NCBI GenBank assembly: GCA_963802965.1
Contig: CAWDKS010000003.1
Span: 274,813-338,812 of the forward strand
DNA length: 64,000 nt
Direction of reading: 5' to 3'
From: an uncultured Verrucomicrobiae bacterium
GTDB lineage: Bacteria; Verrucomicrobiota; Verrucomicrobiia; Limisphaerales; UBA11358
The notes under the pieces: model-generated
What the model saw: only the letters and a program-made list of their open reading frames with translations
Database searches by the model: none
Told to the model about the DNA's origin: nothing
Shown here: positions 6,236-56,273 of the stretch, one piece after another
Position numbering within the stretch: position 1 is the stretch's first letter
Layout of the letters: every line of letters starts with the position of its first letter
Translations under genes and position numbers: made by a program

Positions 6236-6300
6236 AATGTGATGCGTGACACGTGAAGAAATGGTTTCTTCCGCTCACGTTTCACGTCTCACGTCTCACG
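6236..6300. repeat. simple-sequence hairpin (arms built from CACGTGA/TCACGTC-like units)
   Basis: gtgatgcgtgacacgtgaag ... ctcacgtttcacgtctcacgtctcacgc are roughly complementary arms directly after the ADH stop. Confidence 0.5.
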
Positions 6301-8714: not shown

Positions 8715-8806
8715 CGACCGGACATTTACGATTTGCGATATACGATTTACAAGGCTGCTCCAATTTCGAGACTGGCGCGTAAATCGTAAATCGTCATTCG
8801 TAAATG
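8715..8806. repeat. simple-sequence hairpin (ATTTACG/CGTAAAT units)
   Basis: catttacgatttgcgatatacgatttac ... gtaaatcgtaaatcgtcattcgtaaatg. Same architecture and unit as 11015-11095. Confidence 0.55.
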
Positions 8807-11014: not shown

Positions 11015-11095
11015 AGATTTACGATGGACGATTTACGAGGTGAATTTGGAACGAAGCGCGATTCGTAAATCGAAAATCGCAAATCGTAAATGGCT
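11015..11095. repeat. simple-sequence hairpin (ATTTACG/CGTAAAT units)
   Basis: agatttacgatggacgatttacgagg ... cgattcgtaaatcgaaaatcgcaaatcgtaaatgg, lying between smpB and rpoZ. Confidence 0.55.
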
Positions 11096-12363: not shown

Positions 12364-12656
12364 AATTACTCATCAACCGAAACAAAGGTATTTTTTGAAA
12401 TGTAATCCTGCTCAATAAAATTTTTCTGTTCGCCGTTTTTGCGCGAGAAGCCCGAGAACTTAACTGGCAAGCCACTGTAATCCAAAGAATTGTGACAGAG
12501 AAAGGCTTGTTCTTGCAGAAGATGAAAATAATTGCAAAAGCACCAATCCAGAACAAAAGATTCTTGACGAGTTTTTGCATTTGATTTTCTGCGTTTGTGA
12601 ATAGCAGCTAACTTTGATTCAAGCAAGTGGGATTGGCGTTGCTCACCAAAAGTTTT

Positions 12657-12718
12657 TCATTCGCTCCACTCGCCGGCTTGCAGATACGGCTTGAGTTTTT
12701 CCTTGAGCGTTTCGCGTC
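12657..12718. repeat. copy 1 of duplicated ECF sigma 3' end (orphan)
   Basis: 62 nt with 3 mismatches to 14184-14245. Reverse translation [18 protein letters not shown]-stop. Confidence 0.85.
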
Positions 12719-12763
12719 TGCAAAAATCTTTGATTCTTTCCAAAGTAATGCTAGTCTTACCGC

Positions 12764-13018
12764 ATGATTGCCAAAGTTTCAGTCAAAGGCCAGACGGTGA
12801 TTCCCGAAGCGGTGCGCGAGCAGGCGCGGATCAAAAGCGGCGATGAACTGGACGTCGGCTACGCCAACGGACTGATCGTGATGCGCAAACGCCGCGCCTT
12901 GACGCCCGCGCGCGTCCGCGCGCTGATTCTGTCCGGTCGCGAACTTCCCGAAATGACGCCGGCGGCTGAAGCGGTCGTGTCGCAGGCCGTCCAGCGGGTC
13001 CGCCGCCGCCGCAAATAA
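12764..13018 (+). CDS. AbrB/MazE/SpoVT-family antitoxin
   Basis: MIAKVSVKGQTVIPEAVREQARIKSGDELDV. The stop overlaps the PIN gene ATG. Confidence 0.8.
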   Translation: MIAKVSVKGQTVIPEAVREQARIKSGDELDVGYANGLIVMRKRRALTPARVRALILSGRELPEMTPAAEAVVSQAVQRVRRRRK

Positions 13019-14855: not shown

Positions 14856-15000
14856 AACCACGGATGGACACGGATGAACACGGATGCAGACAAGGCAAAA
14901 TGGCGTCTTCAGGGAACCGGGAATACCTCGTTGGCCAGTGAACTCATTTACTTTGCTGAAGTCTTTTTCTATCCGTGTTTATCCGTGTCCATCCGTGGTT
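14856..15000. repeat. MITE-like element with 30-bp terminal inverted repeats built from CACGGATG units
   Basis: aaccacggatggacacggatgaacacggat (14857-14886) against atccgtgtttatccgtgtccatccgtggtt (14971-15000). 29 of 30 positions are complementary, with an 84-bp spacer. Confidence 0.7.
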
Positions 15001-22367: not shown

Positions 22368-23519
22368 ATGACGCTGACTGAAATTCTTGCCGACGAGGAA
22401 GGCCGCCTGCGCGAATTCCCCGTCGCACGCGAAAAGGTTTTCCTCGCGCACGCCGGCGTCTGCCCGCTGCCGCGCCGGGTGGCGCAGGCCATTGCCGATT
22501 GCGCGGTGCAAGGCACCACCGGCGACCAGGAGACCCTCGTGGTTCCCGGCCGGCTGAACGATGCGCGAAAACTCGCGTCACAATTGCTGAACTGCCAGCC
22601 GGACGAAATTGCGCTCGTCGGGCCGACGTCGCTGGCCTTGAGCTTCGTCGCCGCCGGTTTGAATTTTCGCAAGGGCGACAACGTCCTCATTTACCACGAT
22701 GATTATCCGTCGAATGTTTATCCGTGGATGGCGCTGGCCGGGCGCGGGGTCGAGGTCCGCCTGCTCAACACGCGCGGCCTCGGCGTCATCCGCCCGCAGG
22801 ACGTGATGGGGCAGGTGGACGAAAACACGCGGCTCGTCGCGCTGGCGTCCTGCCATTTCATCAGCGGCCACCGGCTGGAACACCAGGCCATCGGAAAATT
22901 TCTGCGCGAACGCGGCATTTTATTTTGTCTCGACGCGATTCAAACCCTCGGCGCGTTTCCGACGACGGTGGAGCACGTGGATTTTCTGGCCGCCGATGCG
23001 CACAAATGGCTGCTCGGCCCGTGCGGCGCGGGCGTGTTTTACGTCCGGCGCGAATTGCAGGAAAAGCTGAACCCGCCGGTCTATGGCTGGCACAACGTGC
23101 GGAATCCGGATTTCGTCGCGCAGGAACAGATTGTCTTCCGCAACGGCGCGGTCAAATACGAAGCCGGCACGCACAACATGCTCGGCGTGGTCGGTTTGAT
23201 TGCCGCGATGGAACTCGCCCTGGAAATAGGCGTGGAAAACATCGCCGCCGAACTGCTCCGCAAACGCGGGTGGCTGGTGTCGGCGCTGCGGGCGAAAGGC
23301 TTTGCGGTCTTGAACGCCGGCGCGAAAGCGGAAAACGCGAGCGGCATCGTTTCGTTTTACCAGTCCGGCAAAGACCATGCGGCCCTGCACAAAAAATTGA
23401 CGGATGCCGGCATCGTCACGTCGTTGCGGACGGACCGCAAGGGACAAAATTACATCCGCCTCTCGCCGCACTTCTACAACACGGACACGGAATTGCGGCG
23501 CGTGCTGGAATTGGTGTAA
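22368..23519 (+). CDS. class V aminotransferase / cysteine desulfurase-like PLP enzyme
   Basis: MTLTEILADEE...FLAADAHKWLLGPCGAGVFYV, with the PLP lysine in its usual context. Confidence 0.85.
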   Translation: MTLTEILADEEGRLREFPVAREKVFLAHAGVCPLPRRVAQAIADCAVQGTTGDQETLVVPGRLNDARKLASQLLNCQPDEIALVGPTSLALSFVAAGLNFRKGDNVLIYHDDYPSNVYPWMALAGRGVEVRLLNTRGLGVIRPQDVMGQVDENTRLVALASCHFISGHRLEHQAIGKFLRERGILFCLDAIQTLGAFPTTVEHVDFLAADAHKWLLGPCGAGVFYVRRELQEKLNPPVYGWHNVRNPDFVAQEQIVFRNGAVKYEAGTHNMLGVVGLIAAMELALEIGVENIAAELLRKRGWLVSALRAKGFAVLNAGAKAENASGIVSFYQSGKDHAALHKKLTDAGIVTSLRTDRKGQNYIRLSPHFYNTDTELRRVLELV

Positions 23520-23554
23520 ACCAACACGCAGTGCCGGTTTCAATTTTTTCGGCG

Positions 23555-23806
23555 TGCCGCCATTTTGGGAGCTTCTCCCGCGTTCTTGACCACTCCCGCC
23601 GCGAACGTGGAATCCTTTGCCGCGATTCTGGTTTCTCTTGCCGCCGATTTGAAACCCGCTGCCGCACTTTTGGGAATGGTTGCCGCGAAATTGGAAACTC
23701 CTGCCGCAAACTTGGGAGCTTCCGCTGCGAACTTGGAGGTCGTTGCCGCGAATTTGGAAATCCTTGCCGCATTCCCGCAACCTTCTGCCGCAGAGCTAAT
23801 TATACA
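23555..23806. repeat. tandem array, 12 units of exactly 21 bp (consensus TGCCGCGAAnTTGGAAnnnnn)
   Basis: Unit starts fall at 23555, 23576, 23597 ... 23786, so phasing is kept without indels. The edge units are degenerate. The array is open in several frames. Confidence 0.85.
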
Positions 23807-23959
23807 TTTTCCCCGCAACAAACCGACCAACAACAACCAAACTGAAAAACTGAAATCATAAAACAATGAAAACTCAAATGGCGATCCGAATTCCGCACTT
23901 GTCCTGACTCTTTTCCTGTATTCAGTTTGGGATGGACGATTGGGGCAATTGACGTTTGA

Positions 23960-24461
<502 letters not shown>

Positions 24462-25080
24462 CGTGGCGGCGTCTCGGCAGAGCGCCGCAAACCGTGACGG
24501 AATTTAGATGGCGGCTTTCTCCCGAAAGCCGCTACGCCGAAACGGAATTGTCGCGCACTCCGCAATTCGCAATTCGAAGTTGTCATGGCTCTTTTCCGGT
24601 TTTCATTTTGGGATGGACAAAAACGAAGACGGTGAGGAATTATGAATAAAATTTTATCAGCTCGTCAATCGCTCCACAAATTACATCGAGTGGGTGCTTT
24701 TTATTCCAATCTTCATCTTTCAAACCAGCAACTCGTTTGGTCAGGGCGTCAAGTCATTGTCTGTCGGCAAAATCGTTTTGCATCATGTGGTCAAGGATGC
24801 GACGAAGGTTCGTTTGCTCAGGAGCGCGGGTTTGATTGACGCCAAAGTGGTTCGGGTGGATACGGTCAATGATCGGCGCGCCGCGCCGACCGGACGCCGC
24901 AGCGCGGCGTCCCTACCTTGAAAGCGCGGACGTGTCTGTGCAGTCCAAAGTTGTAGCAGTCCCGCAGTGCGGGATGAGTCCGCTTATTCCTACCGCTGCC
25001 GAACGGCAAAACCGGCCCATGATTTGCCAAAATCCGGCGAGCGTTTCCCCGCCTGAACCCTGATTTTACGATGATGAAAA

Positions 25081-28736: not shown

Positions 28737-28771
28737 CTCAACCCTCAACCCTCAACTCTCAACCCTCAACC
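28737..28771. repeat. heptamer tandem repeat (CTCAACC) x5
   Basis: ctcaaccctcaaccctcaactctcaaccctcaacc, ending 7 nt upstream of the tsf ATG. Confidence 0.8.
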
Positions 28772-36051: not shown

Positions 36052-36168
36052 AAGCGCCCTGAGTTGATTTTGCGCTTTTATTTCAACAAATTTTCCAAAA
36101 GCGTCAATCCACGGTTTTTGGTTTTCTTAAATCAAAATAATTCCAATGCTCATCGTCACGGGATGAGC

Positions 36169-36420
36169 GTTGACTGGAATCGAAAGCGTGTTGCGTAACC
36201 TGAAGCCTGTGCTGATGAGCAACGTATCTGTGTTAGTCAGCACACGATTTTCGCTGACTAGCACACCTTCTTTGCTGGTGAGCAAAACGTCCATGCTAAT
36301 CATCACAAGCCTCATGCCAACCAACAAAATTTCTGTGCTGACGAACATAAGGCTTATGCTGACGAACACAAGGTTTGTGCTAACGAACATAACAAAAATG
36401 TCAGTCAGAAAATGGCCGAT
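36169..36420. repeat. tandem array, 12 units of exactly 21 bp (consensus GCTGACGAACAnAAGGnTTnT), AT-rich
   Basis: Unit starts fall at 36169, 36190, 36211 ... 36400 with no indels. The array is covered by open frames on both strands (36170-36472 + and 36127-36483 -). Confidence 0.85.
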
Positions 36421-36637
36421 TTTGGCCGGAAACAAGGCCGTTTTGGAGAGAAAATTCGCCGGAACACCCTGAAAAACAAGCATTTAACCACGAATGTGAA
36501 ATATAGGCATGATTTCTTTGAAAGAATGATGATCCCTGGCGCGTAATAATGTTGTCCGACCGATTCAGAAGTTTAACCAGGACCACGTATGACAAAACCA
36601 CTAACGGCACTCATTTTAGTCTCAACACTGATTCTGG

Positions 36638-36815: not shown

Positions 36816-38057
36816 TCAATGTTCGGCTTTGATTCCCGACACCAAGTATTCATAAAGCTCCTTTTTCGACGTGCGCTTTCGCAACGTGCGAACGGCCACT
36901 TCATTGAATCCCGCCTCTCGAAACATCGCGGCAAATATCTGTTCGACCGGCAACAGCACATCATAGAACTTTGAATTGCCAACGATGTAATTTATCTGCC
37001 CGCCACCTTTCACAACTTTATGAAGCGCCTGAACGTGATGCGTCATGTCGTGAAAATATTTGTCAACATAGGTGGCCAATACACCGCTACGTGAACGAAT
37101 GTCCTGAATGATTTTGTCAAAAGGTTCAAATGGAATCGGCTTTGCACCATTGCGATTCCACTTTTGAAGATTACTCGTGGCACAACCCCATGTTCCACCA
37201 ATGGCCTCCCAGTCAAGTTCTCCTGCTTGCCGACCATTTGTCAAAAATCCGAGCCAATACATATAAGGCCGCAGTTCGCGGATGTAACTCATGCGATTCG
37301 GATATGGCGGCGACGTGATAACGCAATCATAATGGTTGTGTTTCAATTCTTCATCGAGTCGTCGCGCGTCCACGAGCGAAACAGACACGTCGGCTTTCAT
37401 TGGCGAATATGCCGCATCAAGAACATTTTTTGATGCCCGCTGCCAATTTGCTACGAAGTCCGATCTTTTGTCGTGAAACAGGCTTGGATGGGCTGGGGCT
37501 TTGAAAGACATGGATTGATGGCCGAAGCTGACGTTGGCTGTTTCAATCATCACACGGCAAAAAACAATTTTGAGCAAATTCGCCACCGCAAGCTCGTCCG
37601 TCTTGGCACGAATACCTGCCATTGCGTGCCCAAGCAACCTCAAGGTTTCGGCATCCCACCATTTTTCTATTTCGTGGATTGCTGGAATCCATTCGTCGCT
37701 GCTGCCATTTGTGGCTTTGGCAAGCACCGCCAAAGATGCGTCGGCAAAGTTTTCCAATTCAGCCGTGGGATAATTCGCGCATTTGGTTTGTGTCAGCCAA
37801 ATCAGAAATGGATTGATGTCAATTGTGTCTGCCCGAATGCCACGCTCGGCGCATACCAGAGCAGTCGTGCCAGTTCCGCAAAACGGATCGAGAACGACTC
37901 CATCCGAAAGGTCAATTTCATCAAGAATATCGCCGACGAGATGCACGGAGTAAGCAGGCGTAAGCCGCAGCCAGCCATAACGAGTATGTTTCAGATTTGC
38001 TCTTTGAGTCAGGCGTTCTGTAAATCCAAATCGCGGTTGTTCGATGACGGTATTCAT
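36816..38057 (-). CDS. type II DNA methyltransferase (N6-adenine or N4-cytosine)
   Basis: 413 aa. Motif I is VVLDPFCGTGTTALV and motif IV is CVITSPPYPNR, with motif I preceding motif IV. AT-richer than the flanks. Confidence 0.85.
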   Translation of the reverse strand: MNTVIEQPRFGFTERLTQRANLKHTRYGWLRLTPAYSVHLVGDILDEIDLSDGVVLDPFCGTGTTALVCAERGIRADTIDINPFLIWLTQTKCANYPTAELENFADASLAVLAKATNGSSDEWIPAIHEIEKWWDAETLRLLGHAMAGIRAKTDELAVANLLKIVFCRVMIETANVSFGHQSMSFKAPAHPSLFHDKRSDFVANWQRASKNVLDAAYSPMKADVSVSLVDARRLDEELKHNHYDCVITSPPYPNRMSYIRELRPYMYWLGFLTNGRQAGELDWEAIGGTWGCATSNLQKWNRNGAKPIPFEPFDKIIQDIRSRSGVLATYVDKYFHDMTHHVQALHKVVKGGGQINYIVGNSKFYDVLLPVEQIFAAMFREAGFNEVAVRTLRKRTSKKELYEYLVSGIKAEH

Positions 38058-38935
38058 CAGGTTGAAAGCAGAGCTTTGAGAACATTCTCAACTTCGCTTT
38101 TGATACGAGGCGAGAAACGAGTGAAGAAGTCTGCCAAATCGTAACCGACAATTTCGCGGCAAAAAGAATAAGCGCTGGTGGTTGTTGAATCAGAAAGATT
38201 GCCGGTTAGAAGAACCCAAAGATTTTCGCGGTAACGCTGTGCGACATCACCATCAATTTGCGTCGAGAACAAAAGTAGAACAGGAACGTATAAATTCGCA
38301 TATGCTTTGGAGGCGTTAGCAATGTCTGCGTTCTGACGCTTGGAATCCTTGCTTTTGTAACCTTGCCGCGTTTCAAAGACGATTCCCTTGATATTTTTCA
38401 GCGTGTCGGCAGGAAGTCGAATTTGATTTGCAACTTCAACGAGCCAATTTTGAACTTTGGCGCGGGCTTCGGCGTTTTTCACGTCGTTGAGCGCCACCCT
38501 GCCATCAAGCGTCAACGTGCGTTGTTTGCCACGTGCGCCGTCAATTTTGTAACTCCAAATTGCCTGTTCTCGGTTTAGACCGAAATGGTCCTGCAACATT
38601 TGATAAAATACCCACTGTCCACCAATTCCGATTTGCCGATAAATTGATGTCATTCCACCTGCCGCCTTGTGTGCCGCATACATCAGCGGCGAATCAACTC
38701 CGAACCAATGATAAAATGGGTCGGCACTATACAGTGCAGTAAATTGTTCCAATGAGAACCCTTCTTTTCGTCCCTTTCCGAACCTAGGTTTATATTCCAG
38801 GCATTTGCGAAGAGCAGTTTGAATCAGCAGAAAATAACGCTCGTCCTTTGAAAGATTTGAGGGCAATGGCGGTGGCGGGCCTGCATTCTCTTCGAGAACG
38901 TCCAGTTCGGATGTAATTTCGTGTTCGTCGTTCAA
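38057..38935 (-). CDS. putative type II restriction endonuclease partner
   Basis: 292 aa, coupled to the MTase with its stop overlapping the MTase ATG at 38057. The family is not identifiable by eye. The call rests on position and on composition shared with the MTase. Confidence 0.5.
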   Translation of the reverse strand: MNDEHEITSELDVLEENAGPPPPLPSNLSKDERYFLLIQTALRKCLEYKPRFGKGRKEGFSLEQFTALYSADPFYHWFGVDSPLMYAAHKAAGGMTSIYRQIGIGGQWVFYQMLQDHFGLNREQAIWSYKIDGARGKQRTLTLDGRVALNDVKNAEARAKVQNWLVEVANQIRLPADTLKNIKGIVFETRQGYKSKDSKRQNADIANASKAYANLYVPVLLLFSTQIDGDVAQRYRENLWVLLTGNLSDSTTTSAYSFCREIVGYDLADFFTRFSPRIKSEVENVLKALLST

Positions 38936-38980: not shown

Positions 38981-39451
38981 TTACGTCATCGGCACGAGAG
39001 CGTTTTGAAAATTATTTTCTCCGAAAATCTGGTCGAGCATGACCTTGACGTAGTCGCTGGCGTGCCAGTCACAGTGGTGATAAAAGCTGCCGGTCTTTTT
39101 GAGGACGCGGGCCAGTTGCACGCAGCGCGGGCGCATGTAGTCAATATAGGCGCGGGTGGATTCGTGGCGGTCTTCAAAGGCGCGCTTCTCCTTGGTCTCG
39201 CCCCAAAAGACCTCGTAGTTGCGGTTGGAGTTGAAGGGCGGGTCAATGTAAATCAAATCCACGCAGGCGTCGGGCAGCTTGGCGAGCTGTTCCAGATTGT
39301 CGCCGCAATAAACGACGCGGGTGTCGAGGAGGCTGCTGGCGCGTAGCGGCGTTGGTGACAACGCGGATTCTTTGGCGTCGGCGTTGGGTTTCCGCGCCTT
39401 CACAGGCGCGGCTACGGTCGCGGAAGATTTCGCAGCGGCCTTTTTTGCCAT
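38981..39451 (-). pseudogene. N-terminal fragment of a beta-class DNA methyltransferase
   Basis: From MAKKAAAKSS. Contains VDLIYIDPPFNSNRNY (motif IV first) and LDQIFGENNFQN, then diverges (ALVPMT-stop) where NEIIW-type sequence and motif I should follow. Confidence 0.7.
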
Positions 39452-39655
39452 GCGGGGAGAATAATAGTTTTCAACCAGCTTGCAAGTTCGCGTCGCTGCC
39501 AATTGTTTTGCCTTTGATCAGGGACGGCGACACGCCGTCCCTCCCATTGAGCTTGCTGTCGCCCCGGCCGGGGCTTGATTTTTTTAATCGCACAAACCCA
39601 CGGTTTTACCGTGGGCTACCATCGGTCGCTGCTCCGCAGCTACAAATGGATGGCC

Positions 39656-52414: not shown

Positions 52415-52502
52415 TGAACTTCCAACATCGAATGAACACACGCTCCGGACGCGTTTGGACGCCGGGCGTTGAATGTTGAACGTTGAATGTTGAATGTTCA
52501 TT

Positions 52503-53246
52503 TCAGCTTCCACTCGTCGTGGTTAAAACCATGTTCGTGCGCGACTGCGAATCAATCGGCACAACCATTTCAATCGGTTCCGCCGTCGCGCCGCCATTGC
52601 CCGACATTTGAATGTCCACGCGGACGGCGGACGGCAGGTTCGTGTTCATCGAGGTCAGGCCGGTGGTGTCCCAGGTGTCCTGCCATTGCGAGCCGTCAAA
52701 GCAGGAAAATTTGATGCTCGCCACGCCGCTCAGCATGAGCTGGTCTTCCACTTCCGGCGTCGTCAGGGTCAACAGATTCCGCGTGACGCTGCGGACCAAA
52801 TCCCGGCCGGTGGCGGAGCGGTCGGCCGGCTGCCTCAACTCGTAGGTGACGCGCTGGATGTCGGCCCACGGCGCGTTGACGCCCAACGCGCCGGTCGCGG
52901 TGAACATCTCGATCGCCACCGGTTCGGGCACGCCGGGACTGGTCACGTCGCCGACCTTGAAATCGCCGGACAGAACCTTGCTCGTCCCGTTGGTCGGCGT
53001 CACGGCGCACTGCAAATCGCGGCGCAAAAACGTGACCGTCTGATCCACCGGCCCGGCCGCGTCCACGACATCGCTTGTCGCCTCGCGCAGACGCAGCGCG
53101 GCAAACAGCACGGCGTTGACGGCGATCAGCACAATGGCCGCGACGCCGATGGCGAGAACCATCTCAATCAGCGTGAACGCGTGGCACGGCGTTGAAGCGT
53201 TGAAGCGTTGAAGCGTTGAAGTGGGCAACGTGCGGCCACGCTGCAT
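52503..53246 (-). CDS. GspJ-like minor pseudopilin
   Basis: ...STLQRFNASTPCHA-FTLIEMVLAIGVAAIVL. Start uncertain (ATG 53246 or 53300). Confidence 0.65.
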   Translation of the reverse strand: MQRGRTLPTSTLQRFNASTPCHAFTLIEMVLAIGVAAIVLIAVNAVLFAALRLREATSDVVDAAGPVDQTVTFLRRDLQCAVTPTNGTSKVLSGDFKVGDVTSPGVPEPVAIEMFTATGALGVNAPWADIQRVTYELRQPADRSATGRDLVRSVTRNLLTLTTPEVEDQLMLSGVASIKFSCFDGSQWQDTWDTTGLTSMNTNLPSAVRVDIQMSGNGGATAEPIEMVVPIDSQSRTNMVLTTTSGS

Positions 53247-53299
53247 CGTTTCAACGCTGCATCGCTCCAACGGCCTATCTTTTTTTGTTTCAATTTTCA

Positions 53300-53806: not shown

Positions 53807-54377
53807 AACCCGTGTGGTTGCGCGTTTCGATCAGCCAGCGCGAAACGCCGGCGGAGTCCGTCAATTGCAGCGTCTGCGGACTGTTTTCATCCACCGTGCC
53901 ATCCGCCAGAAAACGGATGGCCGGCAAATTGTTGAAAGTTGTCGGCGTGCCCGAACCAGTATTCAGCACCGCGATTTGCAGCGTTGAATCCACCGGCAAA
54001 GTTTCCGCCTTCGGGTCGCCGGTCTTGCCGGTTGTTTCCGCTTCGAGTCCGTAGGCGCCCTGTTTTTCGTCCACCCAAAGCACCATCGGCAGGCCCTCCG
54101 AAACCGCGCGGCTCTGGCCGGCGTGCATCAGCGCGAACAGCCGCCGCGCCTCGGAATCCAGCGCGCGGCCGCGGATGAAATTCGCCATCGCCGGCGCGGC
54201 GAGCGACGTGATGACGACCAGCAACGCCAGAACGAGGGTCAACTCGATCAGGGTGAAGGCCCGACGAAGCGTTGAAGCGTTGAAGCGTTGAAGTGTTGAA
54301 ACGGAAAAAGCGCCGTCCCGCTGCAACGCTGGAACGTTGCAACACTTCAACAGGGCATTTCGCTTCAACAATTTCAT
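53781..54377 (-). CDS. GspH-like minor pseudopilin
   Basis: ...STLQRFNASTLRRA-FTLIELTLVLALLVV. Confidence 0.7.
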   Translation of the reverse strand: MKLLKRNALLKCCNVPALQRDGAFSVSTLQRFNASTLRRAFTLIELTLVLALLVVITSLAAPAMANFIRGRALDSEARRLFALMHAGQSRAVSEGLPMVLWVDEKQGAYGLEAETTGKTGDPKAETLPVDSTLQIAVLNTGSGTPTTFNNLPAIRFLADGTVDENSPQTLQLTDSAGVSRWLIETRNHTGYEIRDTKQ

Positions 54378-56166: not shown

Positions 56167-56181
56167 TTGAAATTCAGGAAA

Positions 56182-56273
56182 ACATCCAACAACGAACATC
56201 CAACAACGAACATCCAATGCACGGAAAGCCACCGCCATTGGGCGTTGGATGTTGGATGTTGGATGTTGGATGT
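56182..56273. repeat. simple-sequence hairpin (CATCCAA / TTGGATG units) between gspE and gspF
   Basis: acatccaacaacgaacatccaacaacgaacatccaatgc ... gcgttggatgttggatgttggatgttggatgt. Confidence 0.7.

Follow-up and report, generated by a model that had tools for sequence, protein, structure and literature searches.

We analyzed a 64-kb stretch of DNA (64,000 nucleotides, hereafter the window) from an uncultured verrucomicrobium, and in particular a tandem repeat array, A1, that lies between the gene for a class-V aminotransferase and the toxin-antitoxin genes brnT and brnA. The window derives from the chromosome of a Limisphaerales-type verrucomicrobium, and 80 Limisphaerales loci with aminotransferase orthologs at 70-92% identity are syntenic with it. 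Besides the aminotransferase and BrnT/BrnA, A1 has as a neighbor a 602-aa protein without a Pfam domain. The features at the locus are as follows (positions are those of the window; loci compared with it are designated by L numbers):

ends at 23519 (stop codon 23517-23519), + strand: class-V aminotransferase gene, upstream neighbor of A1
23520-23554, + strand: ancestral spacer, from the aminotransferase stop to the first unit, which aligns with intergenic DNA of array-less relatives
23555-23806, + strand: array A1, 12 head-to-tail 21-bp units with the consensus TGCCGCGAACTTGGAAACTCC and zero indels
23786-23842, + strand: terminal module of A1, composed of the last degenerate unit TGCCGCAGAGC, an AT-rich box TAATTATACATTTT, and a CA-rich stretch ACCAACAACAACCAAAC
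starts at 23969, + strand: brnT, downstream neighbor, ~160 bp downstream of A1

A first-pass annotation of this DNA had described twelve phased units, one every 21 bp without an indel, between the aminotransferase and the BrnTA module. The flanking genes are as it stated, and A1 is confirmed as a real, well-phased repeat array. When the sequence is laid out at 21 bp from position 23555, all units fall in register (12/12), and self-identity is 0.55-0.59 at lags 21, 42, 63, and 84 (0.55 at lag 21), compared with 0.23-0.32 at lags 7, 14, 18-20, and 22-24. A scan of the whole 64 kb at lags 5-60 returned only two periodic places, A1 and 36161-36506. A repeat finder recovered 8 copies of A1 in register, and Tandem Repeats Finder reported just the best 4.3 copies (23681-23770) because the units have diverged.

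Conservation in A1 is confined to particular columns of the unit (permutation p=0.0002). Pairwise identity reaches 0.70-1.0 in columns 1-6 (T1 G2 C3 C4 G5 C6) and at T12 and G13, and it is 0.23-0.35 in columns 7, 8, 10, 15, 17, 19, and 20, versus a random expectation of 0.26. The core pattern can be written as TGCCGC(GAA)-N-TG(G), i.e., each unit comprises a 9-bp core, TGCCGCGAA, and a 12-bp weakly conserved spacer that retains TG(G) at columns 12-14. In addition, the identity between two units (mean ~57% pairwise) is independent of how far apart they stand. Given this column-specific conservation and distance-independent identity, A1 is a periodic short core with substitution-saturated filler and probably not a young variable-number tandem repeat (VNTR). 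A simple VNTR with no conserved core, an outcome that the first-pass annotation had kept in view, is likewise unsupported, since substitutions have saturated the columns outside the core and the core itself persists from one genome to another. The units are asymmetric (dyad test, P=0.66), and we took the + strand as the sense strand of the core because homologous arrays share polarity relative to their 3' module.

A1 belongs to a small, dispersed family of noncoding arrays at intergenic sites of Verrucomicrobia-like contigs. L215 (E 1e-14) and L136 (E 8e-9) were recognized as homologs by nhmmer profile, the latter with a profile built from A1 and L215 trimers. The L215 array consists of ~17 units with the consensus TGCCGCGAACTTGGGAGCCCC, identical to that of A1 at 18/21 positions; it contains a single 1-bp phase shift and starts 26 nt past the stop of a co-oriented gene of 174 aa, in a context otherwise different from that of A1 (xseA and a major facilitator superfamily transporter). 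The units of A1 cannot be paired one by one with those of L215, and this absence of colinearity indicates that the two arrays expanded independently around one conserved unit. The L136 array carries the A1 core in 62-bp super-units (21+21+20), with successive spacings of 21, 21, 20, 21, 21, 21, 20, 21, and 21 bp, and ends in a terminal module whose order and sequence resemble those of the A1 module (TGCCGCATAGC-AATTTACGATTTT...ACCAACAACCAACAAC). The 3' end common to A1 and L136 comprises a last unit TGCCGCAkAGC, an AT-rich box, and the CA-rich ACCAACAAC(A)ACCAA, a likeness judged by eye, and not statistically, on an alignment of the regions downstream of A1, L136, L215, and L197. Because this end is shared, the A1-type element appears to have a defined 3' end and a polarity. 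L197, with 8x21 units and a PEP-CTERM neighbor, may be a further family member; its unit likeness to A1 (15/21), as that of L106 (15/21), is not significant after correction for ~120 loci. Across A1, L197, L215, and L136, all units are 20 or 21 bp long, and the family arrays show ~2 indel events in ~820 bp along with hundreds of substitutions. Family members usually lie just 3' of a co-oriented gene, in variable intergenic spots of Limisphaerales/Verrucomicrobia-like genomes.

The first-pass annotation had set an iteron- or centromere-like binding array against a coding heptad repeat. As it reported, the + frame encodes the heptads AANLEVV/AANLEIL/AAKLETP, several frames are open, and the + strand heptad ORF (open reading frame) has only a TTG start. 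Two heptad frames run through the whole of A1, xAAxLxx on the + strand (98 aa, TTG start) and FAAxxxK antisense, the latter preceded by a hydrophobic stretch (FSVWLLLVGLL), and the synonymous share of single-nucleotide codon differences is highest in these frames (0.44 and 0.37). These features speak for a small heptad-repeat protein, possibly now a pseudogene, but we consider such a protein very unlikely. The TTG, located inside unit 1, is the sole start of the + ORF, which has no ATG or GTG; the antisense ORF also lacks both and extends into brnT; and no Shine-Dalgarno (SD) sequence is present. The GC content at third codon positions of the antisense ORF covering A1 is 0.51, versus 0.75-0.8 in host genes. 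Column conservation shows no 3-periodicity, with mean identities of 0.54, 0.52, and 0.64 in the three codon phases, and random column partitions reach as low a minimum 80% of the time (P=0.80). Indeed, wobble positions 1, 4, and 13 of both heptad frames rank among the most conserved columns. Since conservation is column-specific without being 3-periodic, and since T1 and C4 are wobble positions in both frames, selection acts on the contiguous core and not on codons.

Protein searches and homologous arrays point in the same direction. A search of 5.8 billion clusters yielded no homolog of the + translation. A HMMER search with the antisense translation against 1.84 billion representatives gave 8 weak matches. 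The informative match is P0122, whose N-terminal part does not look like protein and gives way to FAAEAPN-type heptads; it is a spurious ORF call over the homologous array of L215. Neither of the marks of a coding repeat named by the first-pass annotation, a codon-biased substitution pattern and a homologous repeat protein, was therefore found. The matter is decided by the homologs: the 62-bp period of L136 and the 1-bp shift of L215 disrupt all reading frames, so these arrays are unable to hold either heptad frame, and because 62 bp is not divisible by three and the L136 translations hop registers, conservation is not at the protein level. These data support A1 as noncoding, and from the initial pair of options the noncoding side stands, with iterons and centromeres as a geometric analogy only.

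Some 21-bp arrays with this pattern are truly coding, which is a point in favor of the heptad protein. A metagenome scan with the pattern TGCCGC-N5-TG x3 returned mostly near-perfect coding VNTRs. Among arrays outside long ORFs, some are clearly coding, antisense to TGCCGC, and others look like DNA sites (L164, described below). L083 encodes, antisense, a TQAATxA repeat protein that has a signal peptide and is secreted. L123 (1427-1726) encodes a 99-aa peptide, a leader plus nine AAKCAAT heptads, directly upstream of an enzyme gene (1723-2715) of the MbnB/TglH/ChrH family (MNIO); the peptide is likely a multi-core precursor of a ribosomally synthesized and post-translationally modified peptide (RiPP). 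Following this example, we considered a Cys-rich RiPP precursor for A1, whose + frame CRxxGxx has 10 Cys, and rejected it: the scanned window ORFs include no MbnB/TglH enzyme, a leader is lacking, and conservation of the wobble positions is complete. We also observed that the open Ala-rich heptad frame continues the frame of the upstream gene, with one stop between, in the window (23517-23861), in L072 (2353-2664), and in L215 (68-220, reverse complement); it is also in frame with the upstream ORF in L031, but many stops intervene there. With several open frames, this arrangement has a chance probability of P ~0.15, and we did not count it as evidence that the stop codon is read through or that the upstream gene is extended in frame.

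At the RNA level, A1 is not a structured element. Folding z scores are +1.7 and -0.2 for A1, +0.1 for L215, and +0.8 for L136, the A1 sense RNA is less structured than 196/200 shuffles, and Rfam has no match for A1 or the family arrays. A1 might instead be transcribed as the 3' untranslated region of the upstream gene or as a long leader of the downstream one, and it might offer an unstructured repeated surface for an RNA-binding protein, acting as a sponge, as a zone where Rho loads, or as an element that affects mRNA stability. A1 begins 36 nt past the aminotransferase stop with no terminator-like site between, and the L215 array, as noted, begins 26 nt past the stop of its co-oriented gene. 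In A1, L215, and L072 (an array with an unrelated unit, described below), the array follows the stop of the upstream gene by 26-38 nt and has its core on that gene's sense strand, although with n=3 this is not significant. The A1 sense strand is also mildly C>G (skew -0.11 to -0.15), and GGA/SD-like motifs (UUGGGAG, UUGGAGG) occur in 7/12 units, so that A1, like the CsrB/RsmZ sponge RNAs, carries many short motifs on one strand. Even so, we regard an RNA platform as unlikely. Unlike CsrB/RsmZ, A1 has no hairpin-presented GGA and no RNA structure, and the motif is not kept in the homologs, with GGA in 3/10 units of L136 and no conservation in L197 either. Unit length is held at 20-21 nt, unlike in known sponge RNAs, which have no fixed spacing. 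In addition, no + strand promoter and no terminator are predicted at A1, the L072 array sits after a terminator-like hairpin of its upstream gene (judged by eye), and the C>G bias is weak relative to that of rut sites.

The first-pass annotation had placed A1 at the edge of an accessory island, and comparison with relatives agrees. In the closest relatives (L002, L004, L005, and L011), the aminotransferase stop is followed by ~35-100 bp and then by the homolog of window 25000 onward. Because these genomes lack the stretch from 23555 to ~24990, we consider it an insertion of 1.45 kb with A1 at its left edge (~23555-23562). GCCGCRAAC strings follow the aminotransferase stop in relatives, in the ancestral spacer, and it is suggestive only that this spacer seeded the A1 unit. 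Exact-protein look-ups for strain variants of the locus returned only a 573-bp contig that ends short of A1. A collection of 72,556 plasmids contained no match to the array, and viral contigs contained no A1-type array.

The insertion is composite, since brnTA forms a separate cassette within it, bounded by the following repeat:

23881-23937 and 24562-24618: 57-nt direct repeat at either end of the brnTA cassette

This repeat has the core CTCTTTTCCTGAATTCATTTTGGGATGGACGATTGGGGCAA, preceded by TCCGCA-type heptamer repeats, and it also precedes neighboring cassettes (PemK toxin, DUF4926) in other Limisphaerales contigs (L202-L214). brnTA is thus a mobile cassette, in a pattern reminiscent of an array of toxin-antitoxin cassettes that have a promoter or junction element in common. 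After the second copy, ~370 bp (24619-24990) hold no convincing gene, only ORFs of 65-75 aa with no Pfam match where scanned, and are probably a decayed cassette. Two GC-rich hairpins, GCGGCGTCTC-GGCA-GAGCGCCGC and GGCGGCTTTC-TCCC-GAAAGCCGC, follow brnA at 24462-24540, and part of this segment recurs inverted in L002 and L005, like a repetitive extragenic palindromic (REP)-type element.

Direct repeats ~160 bp upstream of brnT and on the same strand could in principle serve BrnTA itself. A1 might be an operator for BrnA, which we take to be an antitoxin of the ribbon-helix-helix (RHH) type (Pfam gave no match), or a repeat RNA antitoxin like that of type III (ToxI-like) systems, which is likewise tandem and upstream of an RNase toxin. 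RHH proteins do bind tandem repeats (PMC3074162). Comparative data rule both out: among 13 other contigs with 86-93% identical brnTA, the array is present in 0/13, with homology starting at ~23885-23912 (23970 in L208, where brnT is at the contig end) and ending at ~24462 (24546 in L214). These contigs refute the link between A1 and BrnTA that the first-pass annotation had implied. Furthermore, the cassette has its own 57-nt boundary repeat, and the L215 and L136 arrays have no BrnTA. In contrast to the near-identical repeats of ToxIN-like systems, the A1 units are far too diverged, and no terminator is predicted. We see practically no chance that A1 is a BrnTA element.

Several known systems share part of the A1 architecture. 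Plasmid iterons (R6K, pPS10, P1, and F) are 17-22-bp repeats phased at ~21-22 bp, and A1 likewise consists of asymmetric, head-to-tail direct repeats of that size, spaced by roughly two helical turns. In both, a conserved core sits in a looser unit, and an AT-rich box (TAATTATACATTTT in A1, directly following the last unit) stands at one end. It differs in being chromosomal with no plasmid match, and its twelve copies are at the high end. No iteron Rep initiator gene was found in the scanned window ORFs or beside L215, L136, and L197. RHH centromere-binding proteins bind tandem repeats cooperatively and build an extended or superhelical filament (PMC3074162, PMC3130281). The geometry of A1 would fit their centromeres (parC/ParR of pSK41 and R1, parH/ParG, and omega sites; PMC3074162, PMC3130281), in which sites are contiguous and tandem and degenerate repeats are tolerated. 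However, A1 units do not have the dyad usual for RHH sites, the sole nearby RHH-type gene, brnA, is unrelated to the array, and no gene for a parA/parM NTPase or a centromere-binding protein flanks A1 or its homologs.

For LytTR regulators, the binding sites are direct repeats of 9 bp with 12 bp between them (PMC2766830). With its 9-bp core, 12-bp spacer, and absence of a dyad, the A1 unit matches this anatomy, although known LytTR operators have 2 repeats compared with 12 in A1. There is no LytTR regulator gene among the scanned window ORFs, and no + strand promoter of the kind expected immediately downstream of such an operator is predicted at A1. The A1 core is not known to be related in sequence to the AgrA or ComE boxes. 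Two other candidates were rejected. Clustered regularly interspaced short palindromic repeat (CRISPR) arrays have 23-47-bp repeats and unique spacers, whereas A1 has a total period of 21 bp, a core of 6-9 bp, and "spacers" with a common consensus. On inspection, the likeness of TGCCGC-N-TTGG to a sigma-54 promoter or enhancer also failed, with the spacing off by one and the GG/GC elements absent.

The window contains a second array, 12.6 kb from A1:

36169-36462, no strand assigned: array A2, 12 clear units and ~2 degenerate ones with no indel; unit GCTGACGAaCAnAAGGnTTnT, unrelated to that of A1

The two arrays had been described as being of the same size and of unrelated sequence. The latter is correct, and the former is only approximate because A2 reaches ~36462 with its degenerate units. 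The columns of A2 are heterogeneous in conservation (p=0.0008). Its units are partly palindromic (dyad TGYT-N4-ARCA, P=0.02), its folding z scores of -5.1 and -3.9 are consistent with such units, and a hairpin with a 7-bp stem (36148-36168) stands at its left end. A2 lies in a low-GC island beside genes for a type II methyltransferase (36816-38057) and a restriction endonuclease (38057-38935). Adjoining this intact restriction-modification pair, a 173-aa ORF (38981-39502) aligns with no more than the first third of an N6/N4 DNA methylase and could be an older methylase gene that has been truncated. No A2 homologs were found among the loci compared, and the A2-type pattern gave only chance coding matches of 2-4 units in viral contigs. 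As A2 has the form of A1, we infer that it belongs to the same functional class.

Outside the window, ~880 kb of related loci yielded 2 further 21-bp periodic arrays with unrelated unit sequences. One (L031) occupies the same hot spot as A1 and abuts an ArsR-type helix-turn-helix (HTH) gene, and the other (L072) lies just after accC. MAFFT hinted at a downstream module common to A1, A2, L031, and L072, but blastn-short gave chance-level 9-12-mers only, and the idea was dropped; a 3' module is common to A1 and L136 alone. The L136 and L072 arrays are each followed by a small protein; the similarity between the two is marginal (E 0.08), and no remnant of them was found in the window. L164, an unrelated chromosomal contig of 40% GC, contains two 12 x 21-bp arrays (2143-2394 and 12626-12877) that differ in sequence and lie 10.5 kb apart, a pair that parallels A1 and A2. 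An HTH_3 gene lies ~100 nt downstream of one of them, and a LytTR-domain gene adjoins the other.

As the most likely of the readings, we tentatively propose, by analogy with the DNA-binding systems above, that the asymmetric direct repeats of A1, phased at two turns, form a platform for a protein whose gene lies elsewhere. Copies exactly 21 bp apart, equal to two turns of B-DNA, would present all cores on the same side of the helix, where a sequence-specific DNA-binding protein encoded elsewhere in the genome could bind them cooperatively, head to tail, on one face. The bound protein might then form a nucleoprotein filament, and such a filament might titrate or sequester a regulator, insulate the housekeeping gene from acquired cassettes, or mark a segregation or recombination site. 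A factor that reads the cores on one face and needs their phase would be the simplest account of a 9-bp core that recurs every 20-21 bp through many substitutions and about two indels, and it would place the constraint on DNA and not on RNA. The L164 arrays near HTH_3 and LytTR-domain genes and the L031 array at an ArsR-type HTH gene may be analogues. Our confidence in this platform falls short of even because no binding protein or partner gene was found.

Several further observations weigh against the platform. A1 is missing from the nearest relatives and is therefore dispensable. No rep, par, recombinase, or small DNA-binding gene consistently adjoins A1, L215, L136, and L197; the first-pass annotation had suggested looking for rep, par, or recombinase neighbors, and there were none beside A1 or its homologs and nothing similar in plasmids or viral contigs. 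Single extra A1 sites elsewhere in the 64-kb window do not exceed chance, and the A1 units (~57% pairwise) are less alike than those of typical iterons. The orientation of the core relative to upstream genes fits an RNA-level or insertion-polarity account at least equally well. Finally, L215 contains young 42-bp duplications, which are ordinary minisatellite dynamics.

The last point, together with the absence of A1 from its closest relatives, its position in an insertion hot spot, and the lack of a partner gene, also favors a selfish or neutral minisatellite, i.e., a 21-bp unit that was spread to or seeded at intergenic hot spots, grew through slippage or unequal exchange, and is at present decaying without a function for the cell. 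L136 also shows a recent higher-order duplication (62 bp), the arrays are rare, and the GCCGCRAAC-like strings of the ancestral spacer are a possible seed of the unit. Similar to mycobacterial interspersed repetitive units (MIRUs) and intergenic minisatellites, A1 has a unit that is a multiple of 3, follows a gene, is in frame with the upstream ORF, and belongs to a dispersed set. In contrast to them, its copies are not near-identical, being saturated outside the core, and its in-frame relation is not significant. Neutral decay is unable to leave 100% columns beside random-level ones, as the permutation test bears out, or to keep the same consensus in independently expanded arrays of different genomes. 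The ~2 indels in ~820 bp, despite hundreds of substitutions, also argue against it when set beside the usual indel rate of noncoding DNA. We consider a functionless minisatellite somewhat unlikely.

A broader version of the platform proposal is that A1 represents a previously undescribed class of chromosomal element in Limisphaerales-type Verrucomicrobia, a proposition that we regard as improbable. Such elements would be polar arrays of ~12-17 two-turn-phased sites with a 9-bp core and a 3' module, located just downstream of housekeeping genes and heading hot spots that accrete cassettes. A protein filament nucleated on them might serve captured toxin-antitoxin and restriction-modification cassettes as a landing pad or insulator, or the arrays might be centromere-like or organizing sites of the chromosome, and the same 12 x 21 bp architecture, with locus-specific sequence, would occur in unrelated phyla (e.g., L164).

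The window also contains repeats of other kinds. Short tandem repeats (7-10 bp x 3-4) occur in many intergenic regions (8724-8805, 11016-11091, 14859-14997, 53189-53272, 54266-54351, and 56181-56273, with further ones at 6274-6300 and 52468-52498). They are locus specific in sequence and often paired with an inverted copy ~25-80 bp away, e.g., (ATTTACG)4 ... (CGTAAAT)4, and such pairs would form long hairpins with repetitive stems. At 28737-28771, (CTCAACC)5 fills the rpsB-tsf spacer; 4-5 copies are present in five related genomes (L002, L004, L005, L009, and L011), and this repeat may be a conserved translational or processing signal.

For genome scans, the analysis offers a rule: 21-bp repeats with several open frames can be sorted into coding and noncoding ones by whether homologous arrays retain the frame. 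The arrays encountered here include both real repeat peptides (L083 and L123) and noncoding arrays (A1 and L136). If nothing binds A1, it is an ordinary intergenic minisatellite, though an unusually well-phased one. If a protein does bind, A1 and its relatives would be chromosomal counterparts of iteron and centromere arrays, uncoupled from rep or par genes, and they would provide a handle on how the hot spots where foreign cassettes gather are organized and insulated in a little-studied, uncultured soil/peat lineage.

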